From: Alphaproteobacteria bacterium
GTDB taxonomy: Bacteria; Pseudomonadota; Alphaproteobacteria; Rs-D84
Direction: 5' to 3'
Assembly (NCBI GenBank): GCA_017631895.1
Contig: JAGBSK010000035.1
Location: 1-60,103 of the forward strand
DNA: 60,103 nucleotides
The notes below the pieces were generated by a model. That model ran no database searches and was not told where the DNA came from. It saw only the letters and a program-made list of their open reading frames with translations. The translations under genes and the position numbers were made by a program. This document shows, in pieces, positions 11,124 through 60,075 of the stretch (its first letter is position 1; the number at the start of each line of letters is the position of its first letter).

Positions 11124-11147
11124 AAATCCCGCATGTGCGGGATTTTT
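11122..11147. terminator. bidirectional intrinsic terminator (RNHCP gene / RND gene)
   Basis: AAAAA-TCCCGC-ATGT-GCGGGA-TTTTTA. The RND stop codon lies in the T-run. Confidence 0.75.
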
Positions 11148-23347: not shown

Positions 23348-23489
23348 AAAAACATATCCTTTGTTTTGTTGTTCGTGCAAATTATAACTATCTTTTAGAT
23401 TTATGCAAGGTATTGTCGTTAAAACAATATTTTCCACTTGCGTGCGATTCGCCATTTGTTCTATGATTGGAACAGGAAGGAAAGGAATT

Positions 23490-24749
23490 ATGCGTCATTT
23501 TACAATCAGTGTATTGTCGTTATTTGTTGTATTGCCAACGGTTGCGTCTGCACGTCTGCCGGTCGTGAACATCGCGTCCGCAGGGGTTTCTGCGCGCAGT
23601 GCGTTTGGCGAAGACGTGGCAACGGAAACTAAAAAACGCGTAGAACCAACGCGCAAAAAAACCGTTGTTGCACGCAGTGCGAAAAAATCGGCACCAGTCG
23701 ATATGGGCGAACAACTGATTGCCACAAACGACGTTTTGGCGCCGCGTCGCCCAAGCAATGATTTGTGGGCAAAAAGCACAAATAATAATGTCGCGGACTT
23801 TGCGTTGCGCATGCCATCAGCGAATGAATTTTCTGTGATTCGTTCGGACAGTTTATTGCCAGAAGAAAGTCTGGATAAAAAGGTTGCGGTTGCAGCACCA
23901 GTTGCGGAAGTAAAAACAATCGCAAACCCAATGTCTGAAATCGATAATCAGATTGCACGATTGAATGAATTACAAAAACGCGCCGAAGAAAGCGTACGAA
24001 ATGTATCGAATCGCGTTATCGCCGCACCAATCGCAGAAACCAAGGTTGCTGAACCTGTACGCATAGCAAAAACTGAACCAAAGGTCGAACAGAAAAATGT
24101 TTCTTTGCGTCGTTTGGTTGTGCCAATGGATGACGATGTAATTGTGCGCAGCGTTGAAAAGAACACTTCCCCACGAATCGTGGCGGTGCGTGATGATATG
24201 ACGAAAATGAGCCCCGCTGAACTGCGTCAGGCATTCAGAAAAACGTTCCTGTCGGAAAACAAGCACCTGTCAACGTATGCGATTGACGACCGTTTTGATG
24301 TGGCCAGCGATATGTCATCTTCTATCGAGGGATTTACCGCCCAGCGTGATATTTCCGAAGGCGGAGGAATTCGACCACTTGAAATCAAAATCAAATTCCG
24401 CAACGAAGATTCCGCATTATCGCGTGAAAATTATAATTTGCTGACCGAATATGCGGGTATTGTTGTCAGCAAACCAACACGCGCAATTCAATTGGCAATA
24501 CCAGAAAATATGACCAAGACCAAAGACGGTCGCAAATTGGCGGCGCGTCGTTTGGCAATTGTAGAACAGGTTTTAACCGATAATGGTGTATCACAGCAAC
24601 GCATTGTTCCAGTACTGTCCAATCGGGACGAGGCCGGATTTGTATTGCGTATTATTTCCAGCGACCAATACGAAACGCTGACCAAGCAAAAGCGCGACAT
24701 ATTCGGTGATACGATTGGTAATAAAACGTACAAAAGTATGTCGTGGTAA
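23490..24749 (+). CDS. secreted protein with OmpA/MotB-like C-terminal domain
   Basis: Start at MRHFTISVLSLFVVLPTVASA (ATG 23490, GGAAGGAAAGGA SD). The C-terminus IKFRNEDSALSRENYNLLTEYAGIVV...GRKLAARRLAIVEQVLTDNGVSQQRIVPV follows the OmpA_C pattern loosely. Confidence 0.55.
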   Translation: MRHFTISVLSLFVVLPTVASARLPVVNIASAGVSARSAFGEDVATETKKRVEPTRKKTVVARSAKKSAPVDMGEQLIATNDVLAPRRPSNDLWAKSTNNNVADFALRMPSANEFSVIRSDSLLPEESLDKKVAVAAPVAEVKTIANPMSEIDNQIARLNELQKRAEESVRNVSNRVIAAPIAETKVAEPVRIAKTEPKVEQKNVSLRRLVVPMDDDVIVRSVEKNTSPRIVAVRDDMTKMSPAELRQAFRKTFLSENKHLSTYAIDDRFDVASDMSSSIEGFTAQRDISEGGGIRPLEIKIKFRNEDSALSRENYNLLTEYAGIVVSKPTRAIQLAIPENMTKTKDGRKLAARRLAIVEQVLTDNGVSQQRIVPVLSNRDEAGFVLRIISSDQYETLTKQKRDIFGDTIGNKTYKSMSW

Positions 24750-26495: not shown

Positions 26496-26520
26496 AAATC
26501 CCCCGTTTGGGGGATTTTTA
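26494..26520. terminator. bidirectional intrinsic terminator (DUF2147 gene / Cys-rich gene)
   Basis: AAAAA-TCCCCC-GTTT-GGGGGA-TTTTTA. The minus-gene stop codon lies in the T-run. Confidence 0.75.
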
Positions 26521-28668
26521 TTTGTCGCTTTTGGCGGATTGCATCTTATCCCATTCCGTTTCAAGCCATGTGCGGATGGCAACCTTGCCAGTTTCATCAT
26601 CAGTACCAATGGCATCTTGCATACATTGTTCACGTATCGCCGCTGAATCCGTGCTGGTACGAGAATCAAAGTCAGTACCTACCGTCGCACCCGTGCCATT
26701 CAAGATTTCATTCAGGGTCACAATGTTGCGACATGTGTTTGTTGTATAATCCTGGCTGTTTTTGCAATCCGGGCTGTCAGCCTTGTCGATAACAGCCTTG
26801 AACTGGGATGTAGATGGATTACAAATCATTTCTTCATAGCAAGACGGTACGTTTGCAACCTGAGAACAATATGTGCGGATGCGCGACGCCGTCCAAACGG
26901 TGCTGTTGCCCGGCCCATGGGAATCCAACTGGGCGTCATAACATTCGTACAGTTCGCTGATACATGCGTCAAAGTTCGTACCAGCCTGGACCGCGTCAGC
27001 CAATATCGTGTCGCGTTCTTCGGTCGCAAATTCCAGACGCTTTTGTTGCAGGGCCTGTTGCGCTGCCACCTTTTGATAGCCAATATTCTGGGCCGTTGTG
27101 CGCAACTGTTCGCCATAGGCATCACAATCCGCGTTCGCATCCAATGCATATTTCTGCATAATGCTGCGACGCGCGTCGGCAACTGGACCGCGCAAGTTTG
27201 AATATGGGTCGCCTGATGTTGATGTATAGCCAAAGCATGTCGCGGAATTCGATGCGGAATAACCGCTGTTTGCCTTAACAAAATTCAATTCATACGTACC
27301 AGAATTATTAACGGTGATATTGCTGTTGTAATTATATGGACACTGGGACGCGCCATTGGAACATTTTGTCCCAGATGGTGGGGTTCCGCAGGCCTCGTAT
27401 ATTCCGTTAAAACACGAATCCAATACGCGTGCACAAACGTTGTTGTGCGCGTATTCAAACAATTCATAGCCCCATGTTTCAGCCAGGCTGTCCTTTAATT
27501 CATCGGATGAATCCAATGCGCCACCGAATCCGCCCAGACCACTGACCACATTGGACAGTTCTTTGAACGCGTCGTCAACGCGTTTATTGTCTTCGTCCAG
27601 AATGGTTATTGTATTTTCCTTGGCATCGGCCCATGCCTGCAAGGACGCCAGAATATCAGAACCACTGCCGTCCAGGTTGGTGACTTCAAAACCAAAACTG
27701 TTGCCCGCGATTGAACAATATTTAGGCTTGGCACATGAAGATACGCTGCCCCCATTTTCAGCATAAATGCCGTGATTAGAACACCATTCAATAGCTTCGT
27801 CGGAACTTTGACCATATTGGTTGGTCACATCCTGCCATGAAACACAGTTCATAACCTTTTCTGCGTCGGTTAACTGAAACGCCTCGGACACATCTTTGCC
27901 CTTGTTCGCGATTAACAATGCCAATTCACCAGAAACCTTGATCAATTCTTCGTTTGCGGTCTCTAATGCGGTTTCAGCCTCGGCAAATGCCTTGACACGG
28001 CCGGCACATGCGCAACGACGTTGCGCCGCATTGCGCGCCGTACAGATTTCGTCCATACAGGTATAGTATGATTCCATACAGTTGTTAAACGCGTCCGCCG
28101 AAATCAGACCCGTTGTGGAATCGATAATGTTTGAATAGTTGCCCGTGTACAGTTTGCTGTTCAAATAAGAATAAGGTGTGGTCGCCGCAGATGTTTTAGA
28201 ACCGCGGATTGCGCTGCCCTGCAACGATACGCGGGCGTTGTTGGTTGCGTCCGTTGTTGCGGTACGGGCGCGAACTGTGCGCGTGTTGTTTGCGTTGGCG
28301 CGGGATGTCGCCGCAGTTTGACGCGATACGACATTACGGGATGGTGCCACATTGGCGCGATTTGCATTTGCACGCGATGCCACGGCGCGGGATTGTACCG
28401 TACTGCGTGAATTTGCGGCACGCGACGCGTTTGCCGTCGTTGTGCGCGCAGTTGTCGCACGTGATGTGGCGGCGCGCGGACTGGCACGACCCGCACGTGG
28501 GGACGTGCGACCGTTTTGATTTGAATACATTGCGTCCGCCGGTGCAATCGGATCTGCAAAAACCGAACGAATTGACAACATTGTCGAACAGACAAAAAAA
28601 GCACCAGCCAACAAAAACACCGTTCCAAGTGCATTTTTAACGGAATTTGCAACTTTCTGACTTGTCAT
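26518..28668 (-). CDS. large secreted or anchored cysteine-rich protein with basic low-complexity N-terminal module, function unknown
   Basis: Start at MTSQKVANSV (ATG 28668, AAGGAGAG SD). Hydrophobic signal or anchor GTVFLLAGAFFVCSTMLSIRSVFA. ~110 aa of R/A/S/T/N low complexity. Then ~530 aa containing 24 Cys by my count. Confidence 0.7.
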   Translation of the reverse strand: MTSQKVANSVKNALGTVFLLAGAFFVCSTMLSIRSVFADPIAPADAMYSNQNGRTSPRAGRASPRAATSRATTARTTTANASRAANSRSTVQSRAVASRANANRANVAPSRNVVSRQTAATSRANANNTRTVRARTATTDATNNARVSLQGSAIRGSKTSAATTPYSYLNSKLYTGNYSNIIDSTTGLISADAFNNCMESYYTCMDEICTARNAAQRRCACAGRVKAFAEAETALETANEELIKVSGELALLIANKGKDVSEAFQLTDAEKVMNCVSWQDVTNQYGQSSDEAIEWCSNHGIYAENGGSVSSCAKPKYCSIAGNSFGFEVTNLDGSGSDILASLQAWADAKENTITILDEDNKRVDDAFKELSNVVSGLGGFGGALDSSDELKDSLAETWGYELFEYAHNNVCARVLDSCFNGIYEACGTPPSGTKCSNGASQCPYNYNSNITVNNSGTYELNFVKANSGYSASNSATCFGYTSTSGDPYSNLRGPVADARRSIMQKYALDANADCDAYGEQLRTTAQNIGYQKVAAQQALQQKRLEFATEERDTILADAVQAGTNFDACISELYECYDAQLDSHGPGNSTVWTASRIRTYCSQVANVPSCYEEMICNPSTSQFKAVIDKADSPDCKNSQDYTTNTCRNIVTLNEILNGTGATVGTDFDSRTSTDSAAIREQCMQDAIGTDDETGKVAIRTWLETEWDKMQSAKSDK

Positions 28669-28754
28669 AAAAACTCTCCTTGTGTTCTGGAAGGCCCAGA
28701 AACCCAACCTTTCTATACGCAAACACCACGCATTATGCATGCATGTTTGTTTTA

Positions 28755-38596: not shown

Positions 38597-41002
38597 TTAC
38601 CCCGCAATGTTTTGGGTCGCCACAACAAAATCTAATGCGTCACCCAACTGAATTTCATTCGCGCGTGCCGCAGATTTAATCAGAACATGCAAAACCGCCG
38701 GTGTGTCAGATGGAATCGTTAACGTTTCCAGTTTTGCACCGTTGCCAATTTTCCGATCTGTGCGCAGACCACGGATGTTTTTCAACAGTTCCAACGCAAT
38801 ATTCATTGTCGATACATCTGTTTCATATTCGGCAATAACGTCCGGGTATGCGGTCAGGTGTAATGTTTCGCCACCTTCGGTTGGTTTGTAAATTTTCTGC
38901 CACAATTCTTCGGTCAGGAATGGTATAAATGGCGCATACAGGCCAATTATCGCACGCAGTACTGTGTACAATGTCCATTGTGCAGACAATTTGGATTCTG
39001 CGCTGTATTTTTCAGGTGCCCAGAAGCGATCCTTGATGAATTCCAAATACTGGTCACAGAAAATATCCCAGAAGAATGTGTCGATGGCTGCGCGTGAATT
39101 GTAATTGTCATATTTATCCAAGTGTTTGCGCGTTTCTGCAATTGTCTTGTTCAATTCGTTCAGAACCCAACGATCTTCGATAAAGCGTTCAGATACAGGT
39201 ACCACGGGTGCCGTTTTTGGATCAAAATCAGACAAGTTCATCAGAACGTATTTAGACGCGTTCCACAATTTTGTCAGCAGTTTTGAACCGCGTTTAACTT
39301 CGTCATCACTATATCGCAGGTCGGTGCCAATTGGGGCGGTCGCAATCCAATAGCGCAATGCGTCCGCACCAAATTTATCAACCGCAGTTAATGGGTCGGT
39401 ACCGTTGCCCTTGGTTTTGGACATTTTTTGCCCCTTGGAATCGCGTACCAAACCGTGGAAGTTTACGGTCTTGAATGGCACGTCGCCCATAACGTACATA
39501 CCCATCATAACCATACGCGCCACCCAGAAGAAGATGATGTCTGCACCGGTGTACAACAAGTCAGTTGGATAATACTTTTTTAATTCCAATGTGTCGTCTG
39601 GCCAACCCAATGTGGAAAATGGCCACAGACCAGATGAAAACCATGTGTCCAGAACGTCTGGGTCGCGGGTCAATGTTTTGCCACCTGCCATTTTAATCGC
39701 TTCTTCTTCGGTTTCTGCAACATAAACCCGACCGTCTGCGTCGTACCACGCCGGAATATGATGTCCCCACCACAACTGACGTGAAATTGTCCAAGGACGA
39801 ATACCCTTCATCCATGCCATAAATAGGTTATAACGATGTTCAGGCAGGAATTTAATACGACCCTCTTCTACTGCCTTAATCGCAGGAATCGCCAACTTTT
39901 CCGCGTCTACAAACCATTGATCCGTCAGGTATGGTTCAACCGGAACACCACCACGTTCAGAATATGGTGTTGGAATAACCTTGTCTTCTATCTTGACCAA
40001 CAGACCCGCTGCTTCGATATCTGCAACAACCGCTTCGCGCGCCTTGTATCGATCCAAGCCACGATATTTTTCAGGAACCACAGGGTTGTCGTTTAATTTC
40101 GCGTCCGGGGTCAAAATGCAAACCGGGGTCAGGTTATGACGGACACCAACTTCCCAGTCATCAAAGTCGTGGGCCGGGGTAATTTTTACCGCACCGGTAC
40201 CCTTGTCCGGGTCGGCATGTTCGTCCGCGATAATTGGAATTTCAATATCGGTCAATGGAATGATTGCGCGTTTGCCAATCAAATGTTTTAATTTTTCGTT
40301 TTCAGGGTGCACCGCAATCGCCTGGTCCCCGAATAAAGTTTCAGGACGTGTTGTTGCAATTTCAATCGCGCCACCGTCAACCAACTGATAGTTGAAGTAA
40401 TAGAATTTGCCCTTTTCGTCGCGGGTTTCAACTTCTAAATCAGAAACGGATGTCTGCTGTTTTGGGCACCAGTTTACCAGACGCTTTTCACGGTAAATTA
40501 AGCCCTCGTTATACATTTTTACAAACAGTTTTGTAACGGCGTTCGACAGCCCTTCGTCCATTGTAAAACGTTCGCGCGACCAAACAGGTGTCACCCCCAG
40601 AACATGCAACTGGTTCATAATCTGACCCCCCTTGTCAGCCTTCCACGTCCAGGCGGCATTTAATTTTTCAGCCAACGACAATGAATGAGGATTTATGCCA
40701 CGCTTGGACAAATCACGTTCAACCAACAACTGGGTCGCGATTGATGCGTGGTCGGTTCCCGGTTGCCACAGGACATCAAAACCGCACATACGTTTATAGC
40801 GACATACAATATCTGTCAAAACATTGTCCAGCGCATGCCCCATGTGCAAATTACCCGTCACGTTTGGTGGTGGCATCATGATACAAAATGCCGGTTTTTC
40901 AGACGCAACATCATTGTTCCAGAATGTGCTGTGGTCCCAAAATTCCTGGATTTTTGTTTCGATTTCACGTGGATTTATATTTTTGCCCAATTCTATATTC
41001 AT
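38597..41002 (-). CDS. valS: valyl-tRNA synthetase (compact, 801 aa)
   Basis: HIGH region PPPNVTGNLHMGHA, DVLDTWFSSGLWPFSTLGWP, KMSKTKGN. Start at MNIELGK (ATG 41002), not the track start 41059. Confidence 0.95.
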   Translation of the reverse strand: MNIELGKNINPREIETKIQEFWDHSTFWNNDVASEKPAFCIMMPPPNVTGNLHMGHALDNVLTDIVCRYKRMCGFDVLWQPGTDHASIATQLLVERDLSKRGINPHSLSLAEKLNAAWTWKADKGGQIMNQLHVLGVTPVWSRERFTMDEGLSNAVTKLFVKMYNEGLIYREKRLVNWCPKQQTSVSDLEVETRDEKGKFYYFNYQLVDGGAIEIATTRPETLFGDQAIAVHPENEKLKHLIGKRAIIPLTDIEIPIIADEHADPDKGTGAVKITPAHDFDDWEVGVRHNLTPVCILTPDAKLNDNPVVPEKYRGLDRYKAREAVVADIEAAGLLVKIEDKVIPTPYSERGGVPVEPYLTDQWFVDAEKLAIPAIKAVEEGRIKFLPEHRYNLFMAWMKGIRPWTISRQLWWGHHIPAWYDADGRVYVAETEEEAIKMAGGKTLTRDPDVLDTWFSSGLWPFSTLGWPDDTLELKKYYPTDLLYTGADIIFFWVARMVMMGMYVMGDVPFKTVNFHGLVRDSKGQKMSKTKGNGTDPLTAVDKFGADALRYWIATAPIGTDLRYSDDEVKRGSKLLTKLWNASKYVLMNLSDFDPKTAPVVPVSERFIEDRWVLNELNKTIAETRKHLDKYDNYNSRAAIDTFFWDIFCDQYLEFIKDRFWAPEKYSAESKLSAQWTLYTVLRAIIGLYAPFIPFLTEELWQKIYKPTEGGETLHLTAYPDVIAEYETDVSTMNIALELLKNIRGLRTDRKIGNGAKLETLTIPSDTPAVLHVLIKSAARANEIQLGDALDFVVATQNIAG

Positions 41003-41091
41003 GTTTGTTGTCCTGTTTATAAAAATAATCTGGTTCAAATCGTACCAGATTAAATTCAAATTTCAAGATTTTAACAATATATACCACAAAT

Positions 41092-41120
41092 AAAAATCCC
41101 GCCGGGTGGCGGGAATTTTT
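41092..41120 (-). terminator. infB intrinsic terminator
   Basis: AAAAA-TCCCGCC-GGGT-GGCGGGA-ATTTTT straddling the infB stop. Confidence 0.7.
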
Positions 41121-43527
41121 ATAACTGGGCGCGAACTTCTTCGACCTCGTAACATTCGACGCGGTCGCCTTCTTTCAAGTCATTATACTTGTCAAAAGAC
41201 ATACCAAATTCAACACCACCTGATACTTCTTTAACCTCGTTCTTTTCGCGGCGCAACTGTCCGATTTTGCCGTCATAGATAACAACATTGTTGCGTAACA
41301 AACGAACGAACGCGTCTTTCTTAATCGTGCCTTCGGTCATGCGACAGCCCGCAACGCGTACGCCTTTGCCGACCGTGAACAATGCGATAACGTCCGCATA
41401 GCCGATAAATGTTTCGCGCTTTTCAGGTGCCAATTTACCAGACAGAATTTCTTTGATTTCGTCCGTAATGCGATATACAACGCTGTGATAGCGAATGTCA
41501 ACACCATTGTTGCGTGCCATATCACGAACCGCAGAATCTGCACGTACGTTAAACGCAATAATCACCGCGCCAGATGCCGTCGCAAGGCGGATGTCGCCTT
41601 CGGTAATTTGACCAACACCAGACGACAGGATTTCAACACCAACCTTGTCTGTTGTAATGTCTTTGACCATGTCAGAAATCGCCTCGACAGAACCCTGAAC
41701 ATCTGCACGCAAGATGATTGGCAAGATAAGTTTTTTGGACTCGTCACGTTTGGCAAACAATTCTTCCAATGATGAACGTTTAACCGCGTTTGCACGGTCC
41801 TTGGCCTGCTGAGTGCGATATGCAGCAACTTCACGCGTTTGTGCTTCGTTTTCCATAACACGCAATTCATCGCCCGCGCCCGGCACAGAATCCAGCCCCA
41901 AAACAACCGCAGGTTGGCCCGGCTTTACAGATTTTACACGTTCGCCAGCGGAATTGATTAAACCACGAACGCGTCCAAATGTTTCACCAACAACAAATAC
42001 ATCACCGATTTTCAATGTACCCTGGCGCATCAGGACGGTCGCAACCGACCCTAAGCCTTTTTCCATCTTGGCTTCGACAACATATGCAACAGCCGGCATT
42101 TCTGCATCAGCCTTTAATTCCATCATTTCTGCCTGCAACAGGATTGCGTCTTCCAGTTTGTCCAGACCGATTTTCTTGGTCGCAGAAATTTCAACGCATT
42201 GGACATCGCCACCCATTTCTTCTACCTGAACTTCCTGTTGCAACAAGTCGGTCTTAACACGGGTTGGGTTTGCTTCGGGCAGGTCGATTTTGTTAATCGC
42301 AACAATAAATGGAACGTTTGCCGCACGGATGTGGTTAATAGCCTCAATCGTTTGTGGCATGATAGAATCGTTTGCCGCAACAACCAATACAACAATGTCC
42401 GCCATCTGGGCACCACGGGCGCGCATAGCGGTAAATGTTTCATGACCCGGCGTGTCCAAGAATGTAATCATGGCACCGGATTTTGTTTTAACCTCGTACG
42501 ATGAAACGTGTTGGGTAATACCGCCCGCTTCGCCCGCTGCAACGTTCGCATTTCGGAACGCGTCCAGCAGGGACGTTTTACCATGGTCAACGTGTCCCAC
42601 AACGGTCACAACTGGCGCACGTGGCGTCATGTGTTCTGGGTTTGGTTCACGTTCCAGAATATCTGCGTATGGTTTTACAACAACGCGTTTTACTGTCGCG
42701 CCAAATTCAGTTGCAATCAATTCTGCGGTGTCGGCATCAATAGACTGATTCACGGACACCATCATGCCCATTTCCATCAATTTTTTGATAACATTACCCG
42801 CCTTTTCAGCCATTGCAGCCGCCAGGTCTTTGACCGTAATTGTGTCGCCCAGGTTGACAACATGTTCAACCTTTTGTGGGGCAGAAAATACGGCGCGCGC
42901 CTTTTCACGGAAACGTTTTAGGGACGCTTCGGAACGACGGCGGTTTGCACCACGAATGCCGATTTCATCATCGTCATCATCGCCACCACCCATAACAATA
43001 TCGTTCAGGTGAATTTTACCAGATTTTTTGAAATCTTTTTTGTTATTGAATTTACCAGGACGCGTGTCTTCGTCGTCTGCGTTGCGACCACGACGCGATG
43101 CGCCTGCAACCGCATTGTTTGTGAATACCTTGGGTGCGGGTGCCGCCTTGGGCTTTTGCACAGGGACTTCTTCGGCAACATCAGAAGCATCCCCTGCATT
43201 CGCATTTTCGCGAGCAGCCAACTGGGATTTGACCTGTTCGTATTCGCGATTTTCGCGTTCAATTTCCGCGTCGCGGGCGGCACGGGCTGCGGCCTCTTCG
43301 GCTTCGCGGGCCTTGCGTTCTTCTTCGCGGGCCTTGGCCGCCGCCAATACCGCGCGCAGTTTTTCATCCGCTGCATTTTTTGGTGCGGATGGCGCGATCG
43401 GCTCATCGCGTAATTCCTTGCTGCCGGGCGCAACAACGCGGCGACGACGTTCAACGAAGACCGCGTCGCCCTTTTTACTGCGCACAGCATCAGTTGTTAC
43501 AGATTTTCCAAGTGTCAATGTTGCCAT
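41119..43527 (-). CDS. infB: translation initiation factor IF-2
   Basis: 802-aa ORF. Charged N-terminal region. GTPase [28 protein letters not shown]. Conserved C-terminal domains. Confidence 0.97.
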
Positions 43528-47715: not shown

Positions 47716-50700
47716 TTAAGCCTTTTTAACAGAAATCGCCAGGTTATAGCCTTCGATTTCGGTTTCGTATTCGCCGTCGCCCGCAACCATTTCGACAATC
47801 AGCGCTTCGTGCATGATGCGTTTTTTATGGGCTTCCAGCGCGTTTGCCAGGGCCGGATCCGCAGAATACGTCAAAACAATGCGGTCAGATACGTCCAGAT
47901 TCGTTGCCTTGCGCGTGTCTTGGATAAAGCGCAGGGCATCGTTCGCCAACCCTTCGGCGACCAATTCTGAATTAACATCTGTGTCCAGTACAACAACCGC
48001 CGTATTATCCGGCAATGCCGCACCAGATACACCATCACGCATGGTCAGACGCATTTCAAATTCGTCTGCGTTCAATTCATGACCCGCGGCAATCAATTTG
48101 TCGCCCACCAATTCATAATCACCATGTTTGACAGATGGGATGATTTCTTTTAACGCACCACCCAGGCGTGCGCCGATTTTTGGTGTAATCAGGTACACAA
48201 AACTGTCTGCGATGTCACCAAACGATTCTTTGAACACAACCGATTTTACATTCAGTTCATCCTGGATGATATCTGCGTATTCCGGCATATTCACACCCGC
48301 CACCGTCAAAGAATTTAATGGCAGACGGTTGCGCAATTTATATGTTTCGCGCAGTTGCTTGCCGGTGGATACAATCATTTGTACGCGACGCATATCGTCT
48401 ACAATTTTCGTATCGGCAGAAACCGCCGCAGGGAAAGTTGTCAAATGTACAGATTCTTCGCCCGTCAGGTTGGTATAGATGTATTCTGATACAAATGGCG
48501 CAAACGGTGCCAGAATGCGACAGAAACGCGTCAGAACCGTGTACAGGGTATCAAATGCCGCCTGTTCTTCGTCCCAGAAGCGTGCGCGACCACGACGGAT
48601 GTACCAATTGTTCAAAACGTCCAGGAAGCGTACAAATTCTTTGACCGCCGCATCCGGTTTATATTCAGTCAACGCATCACGAACCGTGTCCGTCAGCATA
48701 TTCAATTCCGCCAAGATATATTTATCCAGCGGATTTGTTGGCGCAGTCATTTCGTGTGCGGTAACATTGCCCGCATTCGCGTACAATGTAAAGAAGTGAT
48801 ACGCGTTCCACAAAGGTGTCTGGATTGTTTTTGTGGATTCTACGAATACTTTACCTTCTTTATCAACGGGAACGGGTTCTGCCTTCATAAAATTAGAGCC
48901 CAAGATATACAAACGCACAGCGTCTGCACCGTACTGTTCAATTTGGTCGGCGGGGTTCACAAAATTGCGCAGGGATTTCGAGAACTTCTTTTTATTTTCG
49001 TCCACAACCATACCATTGGCAGATACCGCCATAAACGCAGGCTTATCAAACAATGCCGTCGCCAATACCATCAGCGCATAGAACCAACCACGGGTCTGAT
49101 CCTGGCCTTCGATAATATAGTCCGCAGGGAAAGTCGCATTGAACTTTTCTACATTTTCAAACGGATAGTGTAATGACGCCCAGGGCATAGAACCTGATTC
49201 AACCCAGCAATCCAATACGTCTGGGATGCGTGTCCAGCCATCCTTGGTTAACTTGTCCAATGTTGGACGATGCAGGTCGTCAACCGTAACACCAAAGAAT
49301 TCTTCCAATTCTGCGATTGAACCAAATACTTTGTATTCGCCATCACGTTCCCAGATTGGTAATGGCATACCCCAGAAACGGTTGCGCGAAATTGACCAAG
49401 GACGTGCGCCTTCTATCCACATACGGAAACGTTCACCAGCCGACGTCCAATTAACTTTTTTATTGTTTGCCAATAATTTGTCTTTGATTTTTGGAACATC
49501 AATGTACCAAGAATCGGTTGCACGCTGGATTAACTTTTCTTTGCTGCGGTCGCCAAATGGATATGAATGTTTATACTGTTCTTTTTTAACCAATTTGCCA
49601 TTCGTTTTTAACCAATCCATGATTTTTGGTGTCGCCGCAAAGATGTTTTCGCCAGCAAAGTCCAAAACAGTTTCATCAAAATTACCATATGTGTCAACGT
49701 TCAATAATACCGGGAATTTTGGGTCAATGTTTTTTGCCGCCCAAAAGTCTTCTGCGCCATAGGCCGGTGCAATATGTACGATACCCGTACCGTCGGAATC
49801 AGAAACATAGTCCGCAGGGATGATTTGATACAACAAATCAGACGTTCCCGCATAGTATGGGAACAATGGCGCGTAATGCATACCCGCCAGATCTGCGCCT
49901 GTGATACGTCCCACTTCGGTTGCGTTGGCGAATTGTTTTTCATATGCCTTTAGACGCGATTCTGCGATTACATATACTGCACCGTCGCTGTCCTGCATGC
50001 GCAGATATGTCATATTCGGATTTACCGCCAATGCAGAATTCGCAGGCAATGTCCATGGCGTTGTTGTCCATGCGATTGCGCGGTCACCATTTTCTAATTC
50101 AAACCAAACCGTTACCGCATCATCAACAATTTCACGATAATCCTGGGACGCTTCGGAATTAGATACAACCGTGCCATTTACCCAGTCGTATGGATTCACG
50201 CTGTAATCTTTGTACAACAGACCCCGTTCATACAGGCTTTTCAATGTCCACAGCATGGATTCCATATAATTTTTATCCATGGTTTTATACCCATAGCCGT
50301 CGCCAATATCAACCCAGCGACCCATACGGGTAATAAACGCGTTCCATTCGTTGGTGTATGTCATAACGTCTGTGCGACACATGTCGCAAAATGCGGCAAT
50401 ACCGTCGGTGGCAACAATATCTTTGGCGGGACGCGCCTGTTTCTTTTCAACGGAATTTTCCGCCGGCAAACCGTGGCAATCCCAACCCAACTCACGCGAT
50501 ACGTGGCGACCAGACATTGTCTGAAAACGCGCAACCATATCTTTGACAACGGACACGCCCAAATGCCCCCAATGCGGCAGACCGTTTGCAAATGGGGGAC
50601 CGTCATAGAACGAAAAAGGACGACCGGATTTTGTTTTATCCAGCGATTTATGAAAAGTGTTTTCGGTTGCCCACTTGGACAACATTTGCTGTTCCAGTGC

Positions 50701-50739
50701 GGTAAAGTCTGGGCGAGCATCAGTCTTTGTGTACGTCAT
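47716..50739 (-). CDS. ileS: isoleucyl-tRNA synthetase, type 2 (eukaryote-like)
   Basis: 1007-aa ORF. FSFYDGPPFANGLPHWGHLGVSVVKD...GWDCHGLP (type-2 HIGH region, compare eukaryotic FYDGPPFATGLPHYGH). KMSKS variant KKFSKSLRN. No type-1 C-terminal Zn-finger pattern seen. Confidence 0.95.
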   Translation of the reverse strand: MTYTKTDARPDFTALEQQMLSKWATENTFHKSLDKTKSGRPFSFYDGPPFANGLPHWGHLGVSVVKDMVARFQTMSGRHVSRELGWDCHGLPAENSVEKKQARPAKDIVATDGIAAFCDMCRTDVMTYTNEWNAFITRMGRWVDIGDGYGYKTMDKNYMESMLWTLKSLYERGLLYKDYSVNPYDWVNGTVVSNSEASQDYREIVDDAVTVWFELENGDRAIAWTTTPWTLPANSALAVNPNMTYLRMQDSDGAVYVIAESRLKAYEKQFANATEVGRITGADLAGMHYAPLFPYYAGTSDLLYQIIPADYVSDSDGTGIVHIAPAYGAEDFWAAKNIDPKFPVLLNVDTYGNFDETVLDFAGENIFAATPKIMDWLKTNGKLVKKEQYKHSYPFGDRSKEKLIQRATDSWYIDVPKIKDKLLANNKKVNWTSAGERFRMWIEGARPWSISRNRFWGMPLPIWERDGEYKVFGSIAELEEFFGVTVDDLHRPTLDKLTKDGWTRIPDVLDCWVESGSMPWASLHYPFENVEKFNATFPADYIIEGQDQTRGWFYALMVLATALFDKPAFMAVSANGMVVDENKKKFSKSLRNFVNPADQIEQYGADAVRLYILGSNFMKAEPVPVDKEGKVFVESTKTIQTPLWNAYHFFTLYANAGNVTAHEMTAPTNPLDKYILAELNMLTDTVRDALTEYKPDAAVKEFVRFLDVLNNWYIRRGRARFWDEEQAAFDTLYTVLTRFCRILAPFAPFVSEYIYTNLTGEESVHLTTFPAAVSADTKIVDDMRRVQMIVSTGKQLRETYKLRNRLPLNSLTVAGVNMPEYADIIQDELNVKSVVFKESFGDIADSFVYLITPKIGARLGGALKEIIPSVKHGDYELVGDKLIAAGHELNADEFEMRLTMRDGVSGAALPDNTAVVVLDTDVNSELVAEGLANDALRFIQDTRKATNLDVSDRIVLTYSADPALANALEAHKKRIMHEALIVEMVAGDGEYETEIEGYNLAISVKKA

Positions 50740-50761
50740 GTTTTGTCCTGTTTTTTATACT

Positions 50762-50783
50762 AAAAAAGGCGCCCATGCGCCCC
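50762..50783 (-). terminator. attenuator terminator in the ileS leader
   Basis: Minus strand GGGGCGC-AUGG-GCGCCUU embedded in a U6 run, 22 nt before the ileS ATG. Confidence 0.5.
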
Positions 50784-50810
50784 AGCCACCGTGCGAAGCG
50801 CAGTGCAGCC

Positions 50811-50843
50811 TTATTTAATAATAATTATTGTTGTTTGTTTCAT
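50811..50843 (-). CDS. candidate ileS leader peptide MKQTTIIIIK
   Basis: ATG AAA CAA ACA ACA ATA ATT ATT ATT AAA TAA. Four consecutive Ile codons. Lies between promoter-like hexamers and the terminator hairpin. There is no SD, so translation would have to be leaderless or nearly so. Confidence 0.4.
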   Translation of the reverse strand: MKQTTIIIIK

Positions 50844-50851
50844 CGGTGTAC

Positions 50852-50880
50852 AGATTACAACGGATTTATTAAGATTGCAA
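50852..50880 (-). promoter_or_regulatory. promoter candidate for the ileS leader
   Basis: TTGCAA-N17-TAATCT (alternatively N15-TGTAAT) on the minus strand, 8 nt upstream of the mini-ORF ATG. Confidence 0.4.
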
Positions 50881-50891
50881 GTACATATAAT

Positions 50892-50918
50892 AAAAAATCC
50901 CCCGACTGGGGGATTTTT
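50892..50918 (-). terminator. skp intrinsic terminator
   Basis: A6-TCCCCC-GACT-GGGGGA-TTTTT just after the skp stop. Confidence 0.75.
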
Positions 50919-50921
50919 GGT

Positions 50922-51587
50922 TTAGAAACCTTTTGGGTTTTCCATTTTGACCTTGGATACTTTTTTATCCAGCGCCTTAATCACTTCGTCTGTGATGTCC
51001 AGGTTGGCAACGTCCGCACCTGTGCGCGCCATACGACCGTCAATTACCAGGGACAATTTCTTTTTCGCGATAATGCCTTCGATTACTGGGTCCAGGTGTT
51101 TTGTCTGAACTTCGTTCAATGCCTTTTGATAAGACATTTCAATCGACTGGGCACGTTCTGTCAAATCACGTTGCAATTTTGTAACCTTGTTTTGATAGTC
51201 AACAACGCGACGTTGTAAAGCCTCACGCGATAAAACATCCTGGGACTTTTCAATTTCTGCCTTTTCTTTTTCCAGCGCCTTTTGGTCGCGGGTCAATTCA
51301 TCACGCAGGGAATTTTCATATTTTTCCTTTTGTGCACGCAGGTCTTTTAATGCGGTGGCTGTACCCTGAATTGCGTCCATACGAACAACAGCAATGCGCA
51401 AGTTAGCACCATTTGCGGCATCTTCGCTGACAACCGCGACAGCATCCGATACAGATGCACCAGAATTAGAATTCAAAGCACGCACCGCCCAAACACCCAA
51501 CACCGCAACCGCAATAACAATTGCCGCGATAATGCCGGTCTTTTTATAATTTTTTACAACTTGGTTTTCTGATGATTTTTTTACCAT
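50922..51587 (-). CDS. skp: OmpH/Skp-family periplasmic chaperone
   Basis: 221-aa ORF. N-terminal anchor or signal. Long charged coiled-coil (LRAQKEKYENSLRDELTRDQKALEKEKAEIEKSQ...). C-terminal LSLVIDG pattern. Confidence 0.75.
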   Translation of the reverse strand: MVKKSSENQVVKNYKKTGIIAAIVIAVAVLGVWAVRALNSNSGASVSDAVAVVSEDAANGANLRIAVVRMDAIQGTATALKDLRAQKEKYENSLRDELTRDQKALEKEKAEIEKSQDVLSREALQRRVVDYQNKVTKLQRDLTERAQSIEMSYQKALNEVQTKHLDPVIEGIIAKKKLSLVIDGRMARTGADVANLDITDEVIKALDKKVSKVKMENPKGF

Positions 51588-51648: not shown

Positions 51649-51677
51649 GAAAAAATCCCCGAGAACGGGGATTTTTA
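51649..51677 (-). terminator. intrinsic terminator of the 445-aa orphan gene
   Basis: A6-TCCCCG-AGAA-CGGGGA-TTTTTA. The stop codon lies in the T-run. Confidence 0.7.
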
Positions 51678-53012
51678 TTTTTGGTGGGCGCCATATTTTT
51701 CCAGAATTTTCATCTGGGTCGCGGTTGGCTTTATCGATTTCTTGATTTTACTAAATGTTTCCGGGGTTGGAATAACCGCAAAATCACGCGCCATCTTCAA
51801 TTCGTTATCCAGCACAACAACACCAGACACATTGTCGCCCGACGCAATGCGCGCGGCCGCCACCGCCAGTTCGGCACGAACCTTGTCCTTTTGTGGTTTT
51901 GGTGCATCTGGCAGTCCAAACGTTTCCGCCATGTGCCTTGCCTGACGTCCATCTTTGACAAGTCCATGCAAACGACGGACAAATTCTGTTACCTTTTTAT
52001 TATTTTTGAATTTGTTATAATGTGGCGCCAATGTGTCATACATCATGCGAATAATTTCCTGGTTCGCATAGCCATCACCCAACGTTTTATTCAATTCCGT
52101 CATAAATGGTGTAATGTCGCGTTTCGCGGCAATTATGCGTTCCATACGACGAATAACCTGTAATGCGTTGCCATAATTTTGCATTGCGTTCCAACCAACA
52201 ACCTGGATAAAATCGGAATCAGACAGTCCGTCCGCAGATTTTTGACCGGTTTCTGATATAAATATTCCCATATTTCCGGTCTTTTTATAGTATTTATATT
52301 CCAGCGCATCGCGCAACATATCATCAACCGCGCGAGCAATAACATTGTCCACACGCGCGTCAGAATGGTCTATTTTTGGACGAGCGCGCAGAATCATATC
52401 TTTGTAATCGCGACCCTCGGTATTAGCGGCATCGTATGAAATAACCCAATTACGCTGGGACGCAAATTCACGCATACGATTTACAACTGGTCTGGGTAAT
52501 TTTGCGATGTCTTGTTTGATTTGTTTGTGCGAAACACCACGTGCAAAATCGTGCGCCACCGCCGAGAAAGGATACTTTTCCCCCGTCAAAATCGCACGAA
52601 CGCCCGCAGGTTCAAATTTAGACAATGCCAATAAAGCCTGATGATAATATTCGGCATTTTTCATTCTCAGATAAAAATCTTCGTTGGCATCTATGTCCGA
52701 TGCGATGGAAGCATCAAATGCGCGATACTGATTGTTTTCATCTATGAACTTTTTAATTTTCTTGTTGGCATCTTCGGGCTTTTCATCAGCACGGAAAGAA
52801 ACCTTGGCCACACGGTCCGCTATGTATTTTTCTGCGTCTGCCAATGTGTTTTGTATATTTTTATAATCACGGGCCTGCCCGCGCGACTGAGCATAACTGT
52901 ACGCATAGCGGCCGTACATAGAATTGGCATGAACAACGATTAATTCCAGTTCGCTGTATGCATTTCCATGACTTGCTATGTAATAACTTTTCCCGAATTT
53001 ATACTGAATCAT
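51675..53012 (-). CDS. hypothetical 445-aa soluble protein, no recognisable domain
   Basis: Long ORF with ordinary composition. ATG 53012 (MIQYKFGK) preceded by GGGGGAAAA. Own terminator. No signal peptide or TM segment. Confidence 0.6.
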   Translation of the reverse strand: MIQYKFGKSYYIASHGNAYSELELIVVHANSMYGRYAYSYAQSRGQARDYKNIQNTLADAEKYIADRVAKVSFRADEKPEDANKKIKKFIDENNQYRAFDASIASDIDANEDFYLRMKNAEYYHQALLALSKFEPAGVRAILTGEKYPFSAVAHDFARGVSHKQIKQDIAKLPRPVVNRMREFASQRNWVISYDAANTEGRDYKDMILRARPKIDHSDARVDNVIARAVDDMLRDALEYKYYKKTGNMGIFISETGQKSADGLSDSDFIQVVGWNAMQNYGNALQVIRRMERIIAAKRDITPFMTELNKTLGDGYANQEIIRMMYDTLAPHYNKFKNNKKVTEFVRRLHGLVKDGRQARHMAETFGLPDAPKPQKDKVRAELAVAAARIASGDNVSGVVVLDNELKMARDFAVIPTPETFSKIKKSIKPTATQMKILEKYGAHQK

Positions 53013-53073
53013 ATTTTCCCCCGCTGTTTTTTCAGGCACAATTGTATCATAAAACAGCAATAATTTTTATAAT

Positions 53074-53101: not shown

Positions 53102-53177
53102 GTGGTGCCGGTGATAGGACTTGAACCTACGACCCCCTCATTACGAATGAGATGCTCTACCAGCTGAGCTACACCGG
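53102..53177 (-). tRNA. tRNA-Thr (anticodon CGU), CCA encoded
   Basis: Reverse complement GCCGGTG-TA-GCTC-AGCTGGTA-GAGC-A-TCTCA-TTCGTAA-TGAGG-GGGTC-GTAGG-TTCAAGT-CCTAT-CACCGGC-A-CCA folds as a canonical 76-nt cloverleaf. Confidence 0.93.
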
Positions 53178-53294
53178 CGTGCGAGGATGACTATAATGCA
53201 TTCCCAGAATAAATTCCAGTAGTTTTTTTAATTTTTTGGTATTTGATTTTGGTTATTCGTTGGGTATAATTTCCTGGACAACAAAGGATAACAC

Positions 53295-57788: not shown

Positions 57789-58093
57789 CACAATGTTTTT
57801 TGACACATGGTCGCACGATTGGAACGCAGACGCTGGGCGCGATGAATTATATTTAATGCACGCGCATGGGCAGCGTCATCAGCAACGAACGCTGTCAGCA
57901 CCGACATATCAGTATTAATCTTGTATGTAGTTTGTGGAATACGTTCGCGAACATAGTCCACAAAATGACAATTTGCCTGATTTTGGCATTCGTGCACATT
58001 TTTACATTTGGCACAGTAATAGTGCGCAAGATACACAGGCGCCCCATTATGATTTACAATTACTTTTATGCTTCTGTTTAATCTTTCTAACAT
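57788..58093 (-). CDS. hypothetical 101-aa protein coupled between metG and queH
   Basis: ORF whose ATG lies within the last codons of metG and whose TGA overlaps the queH ATG. Contains CAKCKNVHEC..C. No family recognised. Confidence 0.4.
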   Translation of the reverse strand: MLERLNRSIKVIVNHNGAPVYLAHYYCAKCKNVHECQNQANCHFVDYVRERIPQTTYKINTDMSVLTAFVADDAAHARALNIIHRAQRLRSNRATMCQKTL

Positions 58094-60075
58094 TTATATT
58101 CCGTTCCTATTTCTGCATTATCATTTAATTCAATTATTTTTTCCCCGTCGGTGCCAATGCCCAGTTCGGCTGGACTGCACATCATACCATATGATTCAAC
58201 GCCTGCAACAGTTCTTTGTGCCATCGGTTTTTTCATGCCTGGCAATTTTGACCCAACCGGCGCCAACACACCACGAAGCCCCACACGCACATTTGGTGCA
58301 CCGCACACAATTTGCAACGTGTCTGTGCCGGTGTTAACCGTTAAAATATGTAAATCAGCGCGCGTGTCATGATTTTTTACATCCACAATTTCCGCAACAA
58401 TTGGCGTAGGAATGTTTTCTTGTTTTTTCGGGGCGTATTTTTCAGTCAATATCGCAACCGTTTCATCATCAATGCGATTGAACAGATTTTCAGGCACCAT
58501 AAATTCTGCGCCATCTGCGATGCGACGTTCGTATTTTTCCGGCCATGTCAGGTCATGCGCATCTGCGAAAACATTCTGCATTTTTTCCGCCGCAGTTGGA
58601 ATAAAAGGTGCCGACGCACGCGCAAACAAATCAATCAACTGAAAACATTCATTCAGGCATGCGGCCGCCGCGTCCATATCGCCGTTCTTTACCAACGCCC
58701 ATGGTTCGCATGCCGTCATATATTCATTACCAATAGCATACAGACCACGCAACGCCGCAATCGCCGCACGGAATTCACACGCATCCAGCGCAGTTGTCAA
58801 TTCAGACAATTTTTCGTTAATCTGGGTTGCCAGTTCTGCGTTAATCGCACCCGCCTTGGGCACGTTGTTGCCAAAATTCTTAGCAGTTAACTTGCATACG
58901 CGCGACACAAAGTTCCCCAACATACCGTTCAAATCTTTGTTCACAACGTCCGCAAAGCGCGCGATTGTAAAATCGTTATCGTCCGTTTCGGGTGCGTTTG
59001 CCAACAGCGCATAACGCCAATAATCTGCCGGCGCAACATCAATTGCGGAATCCAAGAATATCCCGCGCTTTTGCGATTTCGAGAATTTGCCACCTTCGAA
59101 GTTCAGGAAATTCATGCCCTTTAACATATCGACGGTTTTCCAGTTGTCGTTCATCGCCAATTGCTGTTCTGGGAAAAACACCGAATGGAATTTCACGTTG
59201 TCTTTGCCCATAAATTGCGCATAGTGGGCATCTGGATTTTTCCACCAATCCGCCCAATTTTCATTTGCCGCCTGAGAAATAGATACATAGCCCCATGGCG
59301 CATCAAACCATACATAGAAAACCTTGTTTTCATAGCCCGGTTTGTTGACCGGTATCCCCCACGGCAGGTCGCGTGTAATGGATGTATCGCGCAAGCCTTC
59401 GTTCGCCCAACCGCGCGCAATTGACGCCGCAGAACGCGACCATTTTGGTGCGTGTTCGGCCAACCAAGCCTTCCAAGTGTCTTCGACGCGTGATGCCAAA
59501 AAGAACAGATTCTTGGTTGGACGCATTTCGATTTTATCGCTGCCCGAAATGGTACTGCGTGGGTTCAGAAGTTCTGTTGCCTCGTACGTGGCGCTGCATT
59601 TATCACACTGGTCCCCGCGCGCGCCTTCAAAGCCACATTTTGGGCATGTGCCCACCAACTGACGATCCGCAAGGAACATGTTGTCATCAACCGAAAACGG
59701 CTGAATCGTTTCGCGTTCTTCGATTAGCCCCAATTCGTCCAGGCGCGAAAACAATTCGTGGATTAATTTTTCCTGTTTTTCTGTGTGGGTGCGACCATAC
59801 AGGTCAAACGACAAATTAAAATCACGCACCGCACGTAGGTGCTTTTCATAGTATTTATTGTTGTATTCTATAACCGGCATATTTTCAGCGGCCGCACCAA
59901 CGACGGCGGGGGTTCCATGCTCGTCCGCGCCACAGATATACAAAACGTCGCGACCACGCGCACGACAAAAACGCGCATAAACATCCGACGGCAACCAACA
60001 GCCGATTAAATGCCCCAGGTGCAATTCACCATTTACGTATGGTAATGCCGATGTTATTAAATACTTTTTTGCCAT
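58087..60075 (-). CDS. metG: methionyl-tRNA synthetase with C-terminal tRNA-binding (Trbp111/EMAP-like) domain
   Basis: 662-aa ORF. HIGH region SALPYVNGELHLGHL. Zn knuckle CPKCGFEGARGDQCDKC. KMSKS variant KFSKSQKRG. C-terminal OB-fold VGLRGVLAPVGSKLPGMK...GMMCS. Confidence 0.95.
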   Translation of the reverse strand: MAKKYLITSALPYVNGELHLGHLIGCWLPSDVYARFCRARGRDVLYICGADEHGTPAVVGAAAENMPVIEYNNKYYEKHLRAVRDFNLSFDLYGRTHTEKQEKLIHELFSRLDELGLIEERETIQPFSVDDNMFLADRQLVGTCPKCGFEGARGDQCDKCSATYEATELLNPRSTISGSDKIEMRPTKNLFFLASRVEDTWKAWLAEHAPKWSRSAASIARGWANEGLRDTSITRDLPWGIPVNKPGYENKVFYVWFDAPWGYVSISQAANENWADWWKNPDAHYAQFMGKDNVKFHSVFFPEQQLAMNDNWKTVDMLKGMNFLNFEGGKFSKSQKRGIFLDSAIDVAPADYWRYALLANAPETDDNDFTIARFADVVNKDLNGMLGNFVSRVCKLTAKNFGNNVPKAGAINAELATQINEKLSELTTALDACEFRAAIAALRGLYAIGNEYMTACEPWALVKNGDMDAAAACLNECFQLIDLFARASAPFIPTAAEKMQNVFADAHDLTWPEKYERRIADGAEFMVPENLFNRIDDETVAILTEKYAPKKQENIPTPIVAEIVDVKNHDTRADLHILTVNTGTDTLQIVCGAPNVRVGLRGVLAPVGSKLPGMKKPMAQRTVAGVESYGMMCSPAELGIGTDGEKIIELNDNAEIGTEYKC

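Follow-up and report, generated by a model that had tools for sequence, protein, structure and literature searches.

A candidate isoleucine-codon leader-peptide attenuator upstream of ileS in Candidatus Enterousia and related Alphaproteobacteria

Upstream of the isoleucyl-tRNA synthetase gene ileS, on the minus strand of a 60,103-nucleotide (nt) contig from an alphaproteobacterium of the Rs-D84 lineage (GenBank assembly GCA_017631895.1, contig JAGBSK010000035.1, positions 1 to 60,103, the whole of which is called the window here), a ten-codon open reading frame (ORF) with consecutive isoleucine codons is followed by a set of competing RNA hairpins. Judged by its sequence and conservation, this element is very probably a ribosome-mediated (leader-peptide) transcription attenuator that sets the expression of ileS by the supply of charged tRNA-Ile. 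At sequence level it combines an ORF of cognate codons, an intrinsic terminator and an antiterminator that shares a strand with the terminator. How the leader works in the cell is inferred: where its transcript starts, that the ORF is translated, that polymerase stops at the U-tract, in which kinetic order the helices fold and how isoleucine supply acts on them.

A first-pass annotation of the window, made from the letters alone, had drawn attention to this leader, and each element that it listed was recovered when the minus strand of 50600-51100 was read (Table 1). It had also cautioned that AT-rich spacers produce ATT runs by chance, which was borne out: the window holds five runs of four isoleucine codons where 1.65±1.48 would be expected, and a count of five was reached by 4 of 100 shuffles. 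The leader has a minimum free energy (MFE) of −28.1 kcal/mol (z = −2.77 against shuffled sequences). The evidence from the window sequence alone does not exceed chance; the locus stands out beyond chance through its conservation, seen in 79 of the 80 orthologous loci and, independently, in 12 metagenome loci.

The leader set was drawn from 80 genome loci (Candidatus Enterousia, order Rs-D84) with IleRS N-termini 79–97% identical, by taking 260 nt of upstream sequence from each ileS. The closest IleRS loci were metagenome-assembled genomes of Candidatus Enterousia and other Alphaproteobacteria from ruminant, chicken, mouse and other gut samples. In the 79 genome loci with a leader, the mini-ORF consists of a start codon, four variable codons, three to five isoleucine codons, a codon for K, R or Q and a stop. 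The distance from the start to the isoleucine run is four codons in 75 of the 79. Among 42 distinct ORFs the start is ATG (39) or GTG (3) and nothing else, the stop is always kept as TAA or TGA, and changes within the run are nearly all synonymous (ATA, ATT, ATC), with GTA or AAA rare. The mean pairwise identity is 0.95 in the isoleucine run, 0.94 in codon 10 plus the stop and 0.92 in the start codon, falling to 0.76 in the structured part and 0.69 in codons 2–5. The 40 nt upstream of the ORF have an identity of 0.40, the spacer before ileS 0.42 and the third codon positions of ileS 0.54. The conservation of a short ORF with consecutive isoleucine codons, which the annotation had put forward as a check on its proposal, was thus observed.

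A protein search for the phylogenetic edge of this distribution was uninformative, as the best 120 matches were all at least 83% identical. Metagenome sequences were scanned with a pattern made of the RNA part only (GCGCTT-N9-16-GGGCGC-N3-7-GCGCC-NN-TTT), with neither isoleucine codons nor IleRS in the pattern. This gave at least 120 matches, and the counts that follow apply among the matches listed. Twelve carry an isoleucine-run ORF upstream, and the same 12 encode an IleRS downstream (54–95% identity); the other 108 listed are GC-rich chance matches with neither an isoleucine run upstream nor an IleRS downstream. In nine of the 12, the IleRS is only 54–71% identical to that of the window, and peptides such as MNKKIIIIIK, MGTDAIIIIIR, MDNKTIIIIE and MNNKNKIIIG are encoded. 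Since ORF, structure and IleRS coincide in these 12 loci, the three travel together beyond the first genome set. Over genome and metagenome loci the mini-ORF follows the pattern M-x4-I(3-5)-[K/R/Q/E/G]-stop and is kept across IleRS identities from 54 to 97%.

The isoleucine codons are used unevenly in the run. ATA is the first codon of the run in 36 of the 42 distinct ORFs, compared with 12% of background isoleucine codons (four window genes), and ATC, at 33% of the background, is almost absent. Within ileS itself ATC is the commonest isoleucine codon (28), followed by ATT (19) and ATA (1). As a guess, the near-invariant order of AUA then AUU and the avoidance of AUC could mean that the leader reads both tRNA-Ile isoacceptors. 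If so, its sensing would include the lysidine-dependent tRNA-Ile2, and IleRS synthesis would depend in addition on how that tRNA is modified. The two threonine codons that the annotation pointed out before the run are present in the window and are not conserved among relatives. Sensing of threonine, suggested by these codons and by a neighbouring tRNA-Thr gene, was rejected: codons 4 and 5 are free to encode T, A, Q, K, N or S.

After the stop codon four segments were distinguished: region 1 (AAnGG..CAC), region 2 (UGCGCUUUGGC), region 3 (GGCUGGGGCGCA) and region 4 (GCGCC(C)n, followed by the U-tract). A MAFFT alignment of the leaders (A1) misaligned the GCACCC variants and the indel-rich region 1 and was unsuitable for covariation analysis, which was based instead on tables anchored on region 3, on swap tests and on a smaller alignment (A2). 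Helix pairing was computed on 77 leaders and on a 29-sequence alignment that includes divergent leaders. The terminator helix 3:4, which is the RNAalifold consensus, is paired at 96.9% in the 77 leaders and at 98.9% in the 29 sequences, with CG to UA double changes present. Its mean energy is −12.1±1.6 kcal/mol, and a T-run of 5–8 nt follows in all 77. In the window, the terminator scan reported the hairpin and T-run that the annotation had described. The antiterminator helix 2:3 is paired at 93.6% and 92.5% in the two sets, versus 25–57% for slid-partner controls, with two-sided changes at two to three pairs across the two alignments. On its own it has a mean energy of −15.8±1.3 kcal/mol and is stronger than 3:4 in 74 of the 77 leaders. 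The pairing UGCGCUU:GGGGCGCA, earlier proposed as antiterminator, belongs to the MFE fold of the window leader.

A C to U change in region 3 at offset −2, found in three leaders, is compensated in both partners, giving GC to AU in 2:3 and CG to UA in 3:4. A second C to U change, at offset 0 in five leaders, is compensated in 3:4 and tolerated as a G.U pair in 2:3. Both alternative helices are thus conserved with compensatory changes in each, as the annotation had anticipated for a true switch. Such a shared strand, compensated in both helices, is the signature of switching between termination and antitermination.

Regions 1 and 2 form a further hairpin of the classical type, with a mean energy of −11.0 kcal/mol; counted from the U of UAA, its first paired nucleotide falls at +3 to +5 in 65 of the 77 leaders. 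It would form before the G-run of region 3 emerges. The small hairpin UGCG-CUU-CGCA, to which the annotation gave the role of sequestering the antiterminator strand, is present, but as the core of this larger 1:2 hairpin (about −11 kcal/mol). A fourth pairing, 1:4, was absent from the annotation. In it the bases directly behind the stop codon pair with the terminator's 3' side, as AAGGC:GCCUU, AAUGG:CCAUU or AACGG:CCGUU. Where an A precedes the T-run, a U precedes the GG in 11 of 12 leaders; a G in that place is matched by C (7) or U (8), in no case by A; and an A before the GG is found solely opposite U. This rule, read by eye, is kept by nine of ten divergent metagenome leaders. In swap tests a leader's own strands gave better duplexes than swapped ones for 1:4, 2:3 and 3:4 (z between −4.3 and −4.8, with no more than 1 in 2000 swaps doing equally well; for 1:4, z = −4.8 and 0 of 2000). 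The control pairings 1:3 and 2:4 showed no own-partner advantage in the same test.

The effect of ribosome position on these structures was modelled by masking, with the mask edge defined as the first free nucleotide, counted after the U of UAA. With edges up to +4, the mean energies were −11.0 kcal/mol for 1:2 and −15.3 kcal/mol for 2:3. The 1:2 hairpin weakened to −9.1 kcal/mol at +6, −5.6 at +9 and −3.3 at +12. The 2:3 hairpin held at −15.2 kcal/mol at +6 and +9 and −15.1 at +11, and then fell to −14.1 at +12, −10.7 at +13 and −5.0 at +15. In transcripts cut before region 4, 2:3 was the MFE structure in 62 to 66 of 67 leaders with any mask edge to +12 and was lost from +14. The antitermination range in this model spans edges +6 to +12.

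A ribosome with the usual footprint leaves its first free nucleotide 12–13 nt beyond nucleotide 1 of the A site. Under this standard the edge lies at +6/+7 for a ribosome on the last isoleucine codon, at +9/+10 on the lysine codon and at +12/+13 on UAA, so that the last isoleucine and the lysine codon fall where 1:2 is melted and 2:3 intact, and the stop where 2:3 begins to fail. This is in line with the geometry put forward in the annotation: in the masking model a ribosome waiting at UAA already touches the start of UGCGC, at a cost to the antiterminator, and one on the last isoleucine codon leaves UGCGC free. The distance from the last isoleucine codon to the GCGC core is 17–18 nt in 82 of 87 leaders. 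The sole ORF that lacks the lysine codon (L075) has a post-stop spacer of 17 nt instead of the usual 11–12. Together, these spacings suggest that the distance from isoleucine codons to structure is the constrained quantity.

The following course of events is proposed. Transcription would start at or a few nucleotides from the AUG of the mini-ORF or, in many relatives, run on from an upstream tRNA-Thr gene, and a ribosome would translate the ten codons as RNA polymerase makes the next 50 nt or so. With region 1 free, because no ribosome is present or the ribosome has been released, the 1:2 hairpin (about −11 kcal/mol) would form first and occupy region 2; region 3 would then pair with region 4 to give the terminator. 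A ribosome held on the last isoleucine codon or codons, with its edge at about +6 to +12, would cover region 1 and spare region 2. Hairpin 2:3, the stronger of the two at about −15 to −16 kcal/mol, could then form before region 4 exists, pre-empting the terminator and allowing readthrough into ileS. With ample Ile-tRNA the ribosome would move on to UAA and cover the first bases of region 2, upon which 2:3 would collapse and 3:4 terminate transcription.

The start of the transcript was considered separately. Fifty related loci have a promoter-like pair TTGnnn-N17-TAnnnT where the window has its hexamers, with a spacer of 17 nt in every case, and the −10 element ends 7 nt (20 loci), 8 nt (24), 9 nt (4) or 10 nt (2) before the start codon. 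The hexamers that the annotation read in the window are there, although the −10 is too weak for a consensus promoter scan. With a start site placed on these grounds, the mRNA probably begins at or just before the AUG of the mini-ORF and is leaderless or nearly so; leaderless mRNAs are abundant in Alphaproteobacteria (PMC4117421). In 20 loci just 9–22 nt separate the end of an upstream tRNA-Thr gene from the mini-ORF, too short a gap to hold a promoter, and the leaders there must be co-transcribed with the tRNA. These loci include L017, L025, L058, L067, L073 and L079; the anticodon is CGU, and UGU in L067. In the lineage of the window, an ORF of 461 amino acids and a skp-like gene are inserted between tRNA-Thr and the leader, which has its own promoter-like site. 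The lack of a Shine-Dalgarno sequence before the mini-ORF would be explained by either situation, a leaderless start (−10 ending 7–10 nt before the start codon) or co-transcription with tRNA-Thr.

Several observations weigh against attenuation as proposed. One of the 80 genome loci (L071) has no leader, whether by natural loss or through a fault in the assembly; there, at about 2869-3000, tRNA-Thr is followed by a plain terminator (ACGACGGCTTCGTCGTTTTTT), with ileS 26 nt further on and no visible promoter. When the whole RNA is folded, no mask position puts the terminator state (1:2 + 3:4) behind the antiterminator state: it leads by 2–3 kcal/mol at edges 0–9, and the two are level at +10/+11. 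As the terminator state is never thermodynamically disfavoured, the decision must be kinetic. A purely thermodynamic switch was rejected, since for most placements of the ribosome the majority of leaders have the terminator state as their full-length MFE. With the standard footprint, the antitermination range is reached from the last isoleucine codon and the lysine codon only, and stalls on isoleucine codons 1 and 2 would leave the 1:2 hairpin intact. The synonymous sites of the run are far more conserved than coding needs, which points to an additional constraint, RNA-level or codon-specific. Relatedness inflates the shuffle and swap statistics, and with core helices this strongly conserved there are few independent compensatory events.

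Against this background the other explanations of the locus can be weighed. The simplest is a chance AT-rich mini-ORF beside an ordinary terminator, for instance that of the upstream gene, with no regulatory role. The window supplies material for it in the isoleucine runs counted above, in its many terminators of hairpin plus T-run and in the weak −10 hexamer. Chance would, however, have had to keep ORF, frame, start, stop and isoleucine codons in all but one of the 80 genome loci and in the 12 metagenome loci, at IleRS identities as low as 54%, between flanks just about 40% identical and in loci that are not near-clonal (ileS third codon positions 54% identical). The skp-like gene, moreover, has a terminator of its own, and the leader is found behind skp as well as behind tRNA-Thr. 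We regard this explanation as next to impossible. A structured RNA that works without translation, with the isoleucine-like triplets conserved as RNA (a leader of riboswitch or T-box kind that binds a ligand, a tRNA or a protein, or just the terminator of the tRNA-Thr unit), is very improbable. It would account for the 95% conservation of the run, synonymous positions included, for the avoidance of ATC in spite of its 33% share of background isoleucine codons, for the mini-ORF without a Shine-Dalgarno sequence and for the position directly after tRNA-Thr in 20 loci, and a conserved GGUGG loop faintly resembles a T-box bulge. The pattern of change is that of a coding sequence: differences in the run are third-position and isoleucine-synonymous, T to C included, with no A/T swaps at codon positions 1 and 2; starts alternate solely between ATG and GTG and the stop is always kept; and the 12-nt distance from start to run is fixed although that stretch is 69% identical. 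The leader, of about 90 nt, also has no Stem I or specifier structure and no correct-strand Rfam match, T-box included, even at E≤10.

If the mini-ORF is translated, it might still act by another route, through translation or re-initiation of ileS, Rho-dependent polarity, mRNA stability or a hydrophobic micropeptide. Re-initiation after leader ORFs has been put forward as a general role of leader genes (PMC4833913), and a terminator state favoured thermodynamically at most ribosome positions leaves room for a constitutive partial terminator combined with some other regulated step. Against these routes stands an invariant GC-rich hairpin with a 5–8 nt U-tract that shares a strand with a conserved alternative helix, both compensated. 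Translational coupling is further opposed by the distance of about 70–85 nt from the stop of the ORF to the start of ileS and by the insertions tolerated in the spacer (L026, L155), and a functional peptide by the free variation of residues 2–5 and 10. As a group they are very improbable.

How the 1:4 pairing fits into the proposed attenuator is a question of detail. The element may be an unusually minimal, leaderless ten-codon attenuator that works as a four-way switch, 1:2 + 3:4 versus 2:3 + 1:4, a reading that we hold improbable. In it, 1:4 could provide a second, fail-safe long terminator as long as no ribosome covers region 1, or it could hold the antiterminated fold in place; in the latter version the element could be ON by default, and termination would need a ribosome that reads the ORF to its end. 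A less favoured sub-model has the long hairpin (1:4 + 2:3) for its sole terminator: this hairpin is the MFE structure of the window leader, but of just 14 of 67 leaders, and it would give the wrong response for early stalls.

Classical attenuators of synthetase genes are known for pheST in gamma-proteobacteria and predicted for trpS and leuS in Streptomyces (PMC1262725). Like E. coli pheST (with pheM) and Streptomyces trpS and leuS, the ileS leader has a short ORF rich in cognate codons directly before the synthetase gene, mutually exclusive antiterminator and terminator hairpins and a U-tract. The predicted logic is also the same, in that little charged tRNA would stall the ribosome, allow readthrough and yield more synthetase. 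Unlike those leaders, it is for isoleucine, bears no sequence relationship to them and has a much shorter ORF (10 codons), with regulatory codons upstream of region 1 and not inside it. It is also probably leaderless or co-transcribed with a tRNA, and it has the extra conserved 1:4 pairing. Tandem regulatory codons that include isoleucine, and the 1:2 / 2:3 / 3:4 architecture with an intrinsic terminator, are shared with the leaders of thr (threonine and isoleucine codons), ilvGMEDA and ilvBN and with Rfam Thr_leader, Leu_leader and Phe_leader. The thr and ilv leaders control biosynthetic operons, in contrast to Enterousia, a member of order Rs-D84 with genomes below 1 Mbp and no amino-acid biosynthesis (PMC12306168). 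Isoleucine must therefore be imported, and control of IleRS by tRNA-Ile charging would make physiological sense.

The known RNA control of ileS is the T-box of Firmicutes and Actinobacteria (PMC1262725). The gene is the same, as is the proposed signal (tRNA-Ile charging), and the output would likewise be a terminator/antiterminator switch, or for the T-box also sequestration of the Shine-Dalgarno sequence. A T-box contacts uncharged tRNA directly, by its Stem I, specifier loop and T-box bulge, and does not depend on translation, whereas the ileS leader has no Stem I or specifier and a translated mini-ORF is predicted to read the signal. For a tRNA-Ile with discriminator A the T-box bulge would have to read UGGU. 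The loop of the leader reads GGUGGC, and the 50 nt or so from ORF to U-tract leave no room for Stem I. T-box identity was therefore rejected on the missing Stem I, the missing match at E≤10 and the wrong base for the tRNA-Ile discriminator. In Rfam searches at E≤10 the leader region had no correct-strand match to any family, and the whole window at gathering thresholds yielded tRNA only. Matches to Phe_leader (RF01859) and Leu_leader (RF00512) at 50803-50922 (plus) and 50889-50944 (minus) were set aside as artefacts. They score 22–30 bits, against gathering thresholds of 50–55, lie on the opposite strand or on the skp terminator, and stem from that terminator and from AT-rich sequence.

The annotation knew of no described ileS example. 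None was found in detail in the literature on ileS leader peptides and attenuation, and a bare mention exists: a figure legend of Schrader et al. (2014, PMC4117421) lists an 'ileS leader CDS' of Caulobacter crescentus, CCNA_03934, as a negative control. It was the only ileS leader ORF found in that literature. Like the mini-ORF described here, it is a small coding sequence upstream of an alphaproteobacterial ileS; it is translated according to ribosome profiling, in a species where leaderless mRNAs are common. It is reported without sequence, isoleucine-codon content, structure or mechanism, and the likeness is one of name and position; the context of the Caulobacter gene also differs (ileS-lspA, 969 amino acids). 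Leaderless short polycysteine ORFs of mycobacteria are described as cysteine-responsive attenuators (bioRxiv 10.1101/834739). By that description they too combine a leaderless mRNA, a very short ORF and a run of codons for a single amino acid controlling downstream genes, in another phylum and for another amino acid and other target genes.

Leader-peptide control of synthetase genes is experimentally documented for very few genes, with pheST the textbook case. The present leader would add a well-conserved, predicted isoleucine-codon attenuator on ileS in Alphaproteobacteria, the principle itself not being new. Some 90 sequences with defined helices and clear predictions, and no Rfam entry, make it a candidate RNA family. 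Its retention in uncultured gut bacteria that have genomes of less than 1 Mbp and are unable to make amino acids would mean that sensing of tRNA charging was kept where most regulation was lost. With about 85 nt from start codon to U-tract and a probable leaderless start, the leader would suit in vitro study of folding that depends on ribosome position.

The positions of the leader elements and of the neighbouring features are listed in Table 1.

Table 1. Leader of ileS and its surroundings in the window
Feature	Position	Strand	Basis or remark
−35-like hexamer TTGCAA	50880-50875	minus	direct reading
−10-like hexamer TAATCT	50857-50852	minus	direct reading; 17-nt spacer after TTGCAA; ends 8 nt before mini-ORF ATG
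Leader mini-ORF, ATG AAA CAA ACA ACA ATA ATT ATT ATT AAA TAA (MKQTTIIIIK)	50843-50811	minus	
Regulatory codons ATA ATT ATT ATT (four Ile)	50828-50817	minus	
49-nt stretch after the mini-ORF, GGCUGCAC...GCGCCUUUUUU	50810-50762	minus	ends GGGGCGC-AUGG-GCGCCUUUUUU
Region 1, AAGGCUGCAC (+1 to +10 after U of UAA)	50812-50803	minus	5' strand of 1:2 and of 1:4
1:2 hairpin GGCUGC..UGCG-CUU-CGCA..GUGGCU, anti-antiterminator type	50810-50784	minus	−10.4 kcal/mol in the window
Region 2, UGCGCUUCGC, 5' strand of antiterminator	50802-50793	minus	2:3 hairpin −13.7 to −14.2 kcal/mol in the window
Region 3, GCUGGGGCGCA, shared strand (partner region 2 or region 4)	50786-50776	minus	
Terminator hairpin 3:4, GGGGCGC-AUGG-GCGCCUU	50783-50766	minus	terminator scan
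Terminator U-tract, six T	50767-50762	minus	direct reading and terminator scan
Shine-Dalgarno sequence of ileS, AGGA	50749-50746	minus	within the 22 nt between U-tract and ileS ATG
ileS (type-2-like IleRS, 1007 amino acids; regulated gene)	50739-47716	minus	TIGR00392, 753 bits, cut-off 621
OmpH/Skp-like ORF upstream of the leader	50922-51587	minus	PF03938
Terminator of skp-like gene, separate from leader terminator	50918-50893	minus	terminator scan
ORF of 461 amino acids	51675-53060	minus	no NCBIfam or Pfam match
tRNA-Thr(CGU), context	53103-53178	minus	

An AGGA or GGAG motif is found at the equivalent place upstream of ileS in related loci. The IleRS of the window is the long type-2 (eukaryote-like) form; the next-best models, MupA and MupB of mupirocin resistance, score 573–585 bits, far under their cut-offs of 1900.

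Of the three synthetase genes in the window, ileS has a leader and valS (38597-41059, minus) has none; the upstream region of metG (58087-60075) extends beyond the window end. In the region upstream of valS (41060-41130), which follows infB-nusA, an ordinary terminator and no leader ORF were found, so that the attenuator is specific to ileS and not a general feature of synthetase genes in this genome. A scan of the window for a terminator before a gene together with a mini-ORF holding an amino-acid run returned the ileS leader and one poor candidate, an 18-codon mini-ORF before lpxD with a weak hairpin of −9.1 kcal/mol. The ORFs at 23403-24749 (plus, 448 amino acids), 26518-28740 (minus, 740 amino acids) and 51675-53060 (minus, 461 amino acids) had no NCBIfam match at E≤1e-20.

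Nearly all terminators of the window are symmetric (AAAAA, GC stem, TTTTT), as at 50893-50918, 51651-51676, about 41096-41125 and about 11126-11150, and could function in both directions; the stem of the ileS leader terminator is unlike the others in sequence. In two related loci, L026 (2890-2990) and L155, palindromic, repeat-rich insertions of about 90 nt lie between the U-tract and ileS with the leader intact (GTTCAAAGTTCA... in L026 and GAAGTTTGAGGTTTGAAG... in L155), and these may be small mobile repeats.

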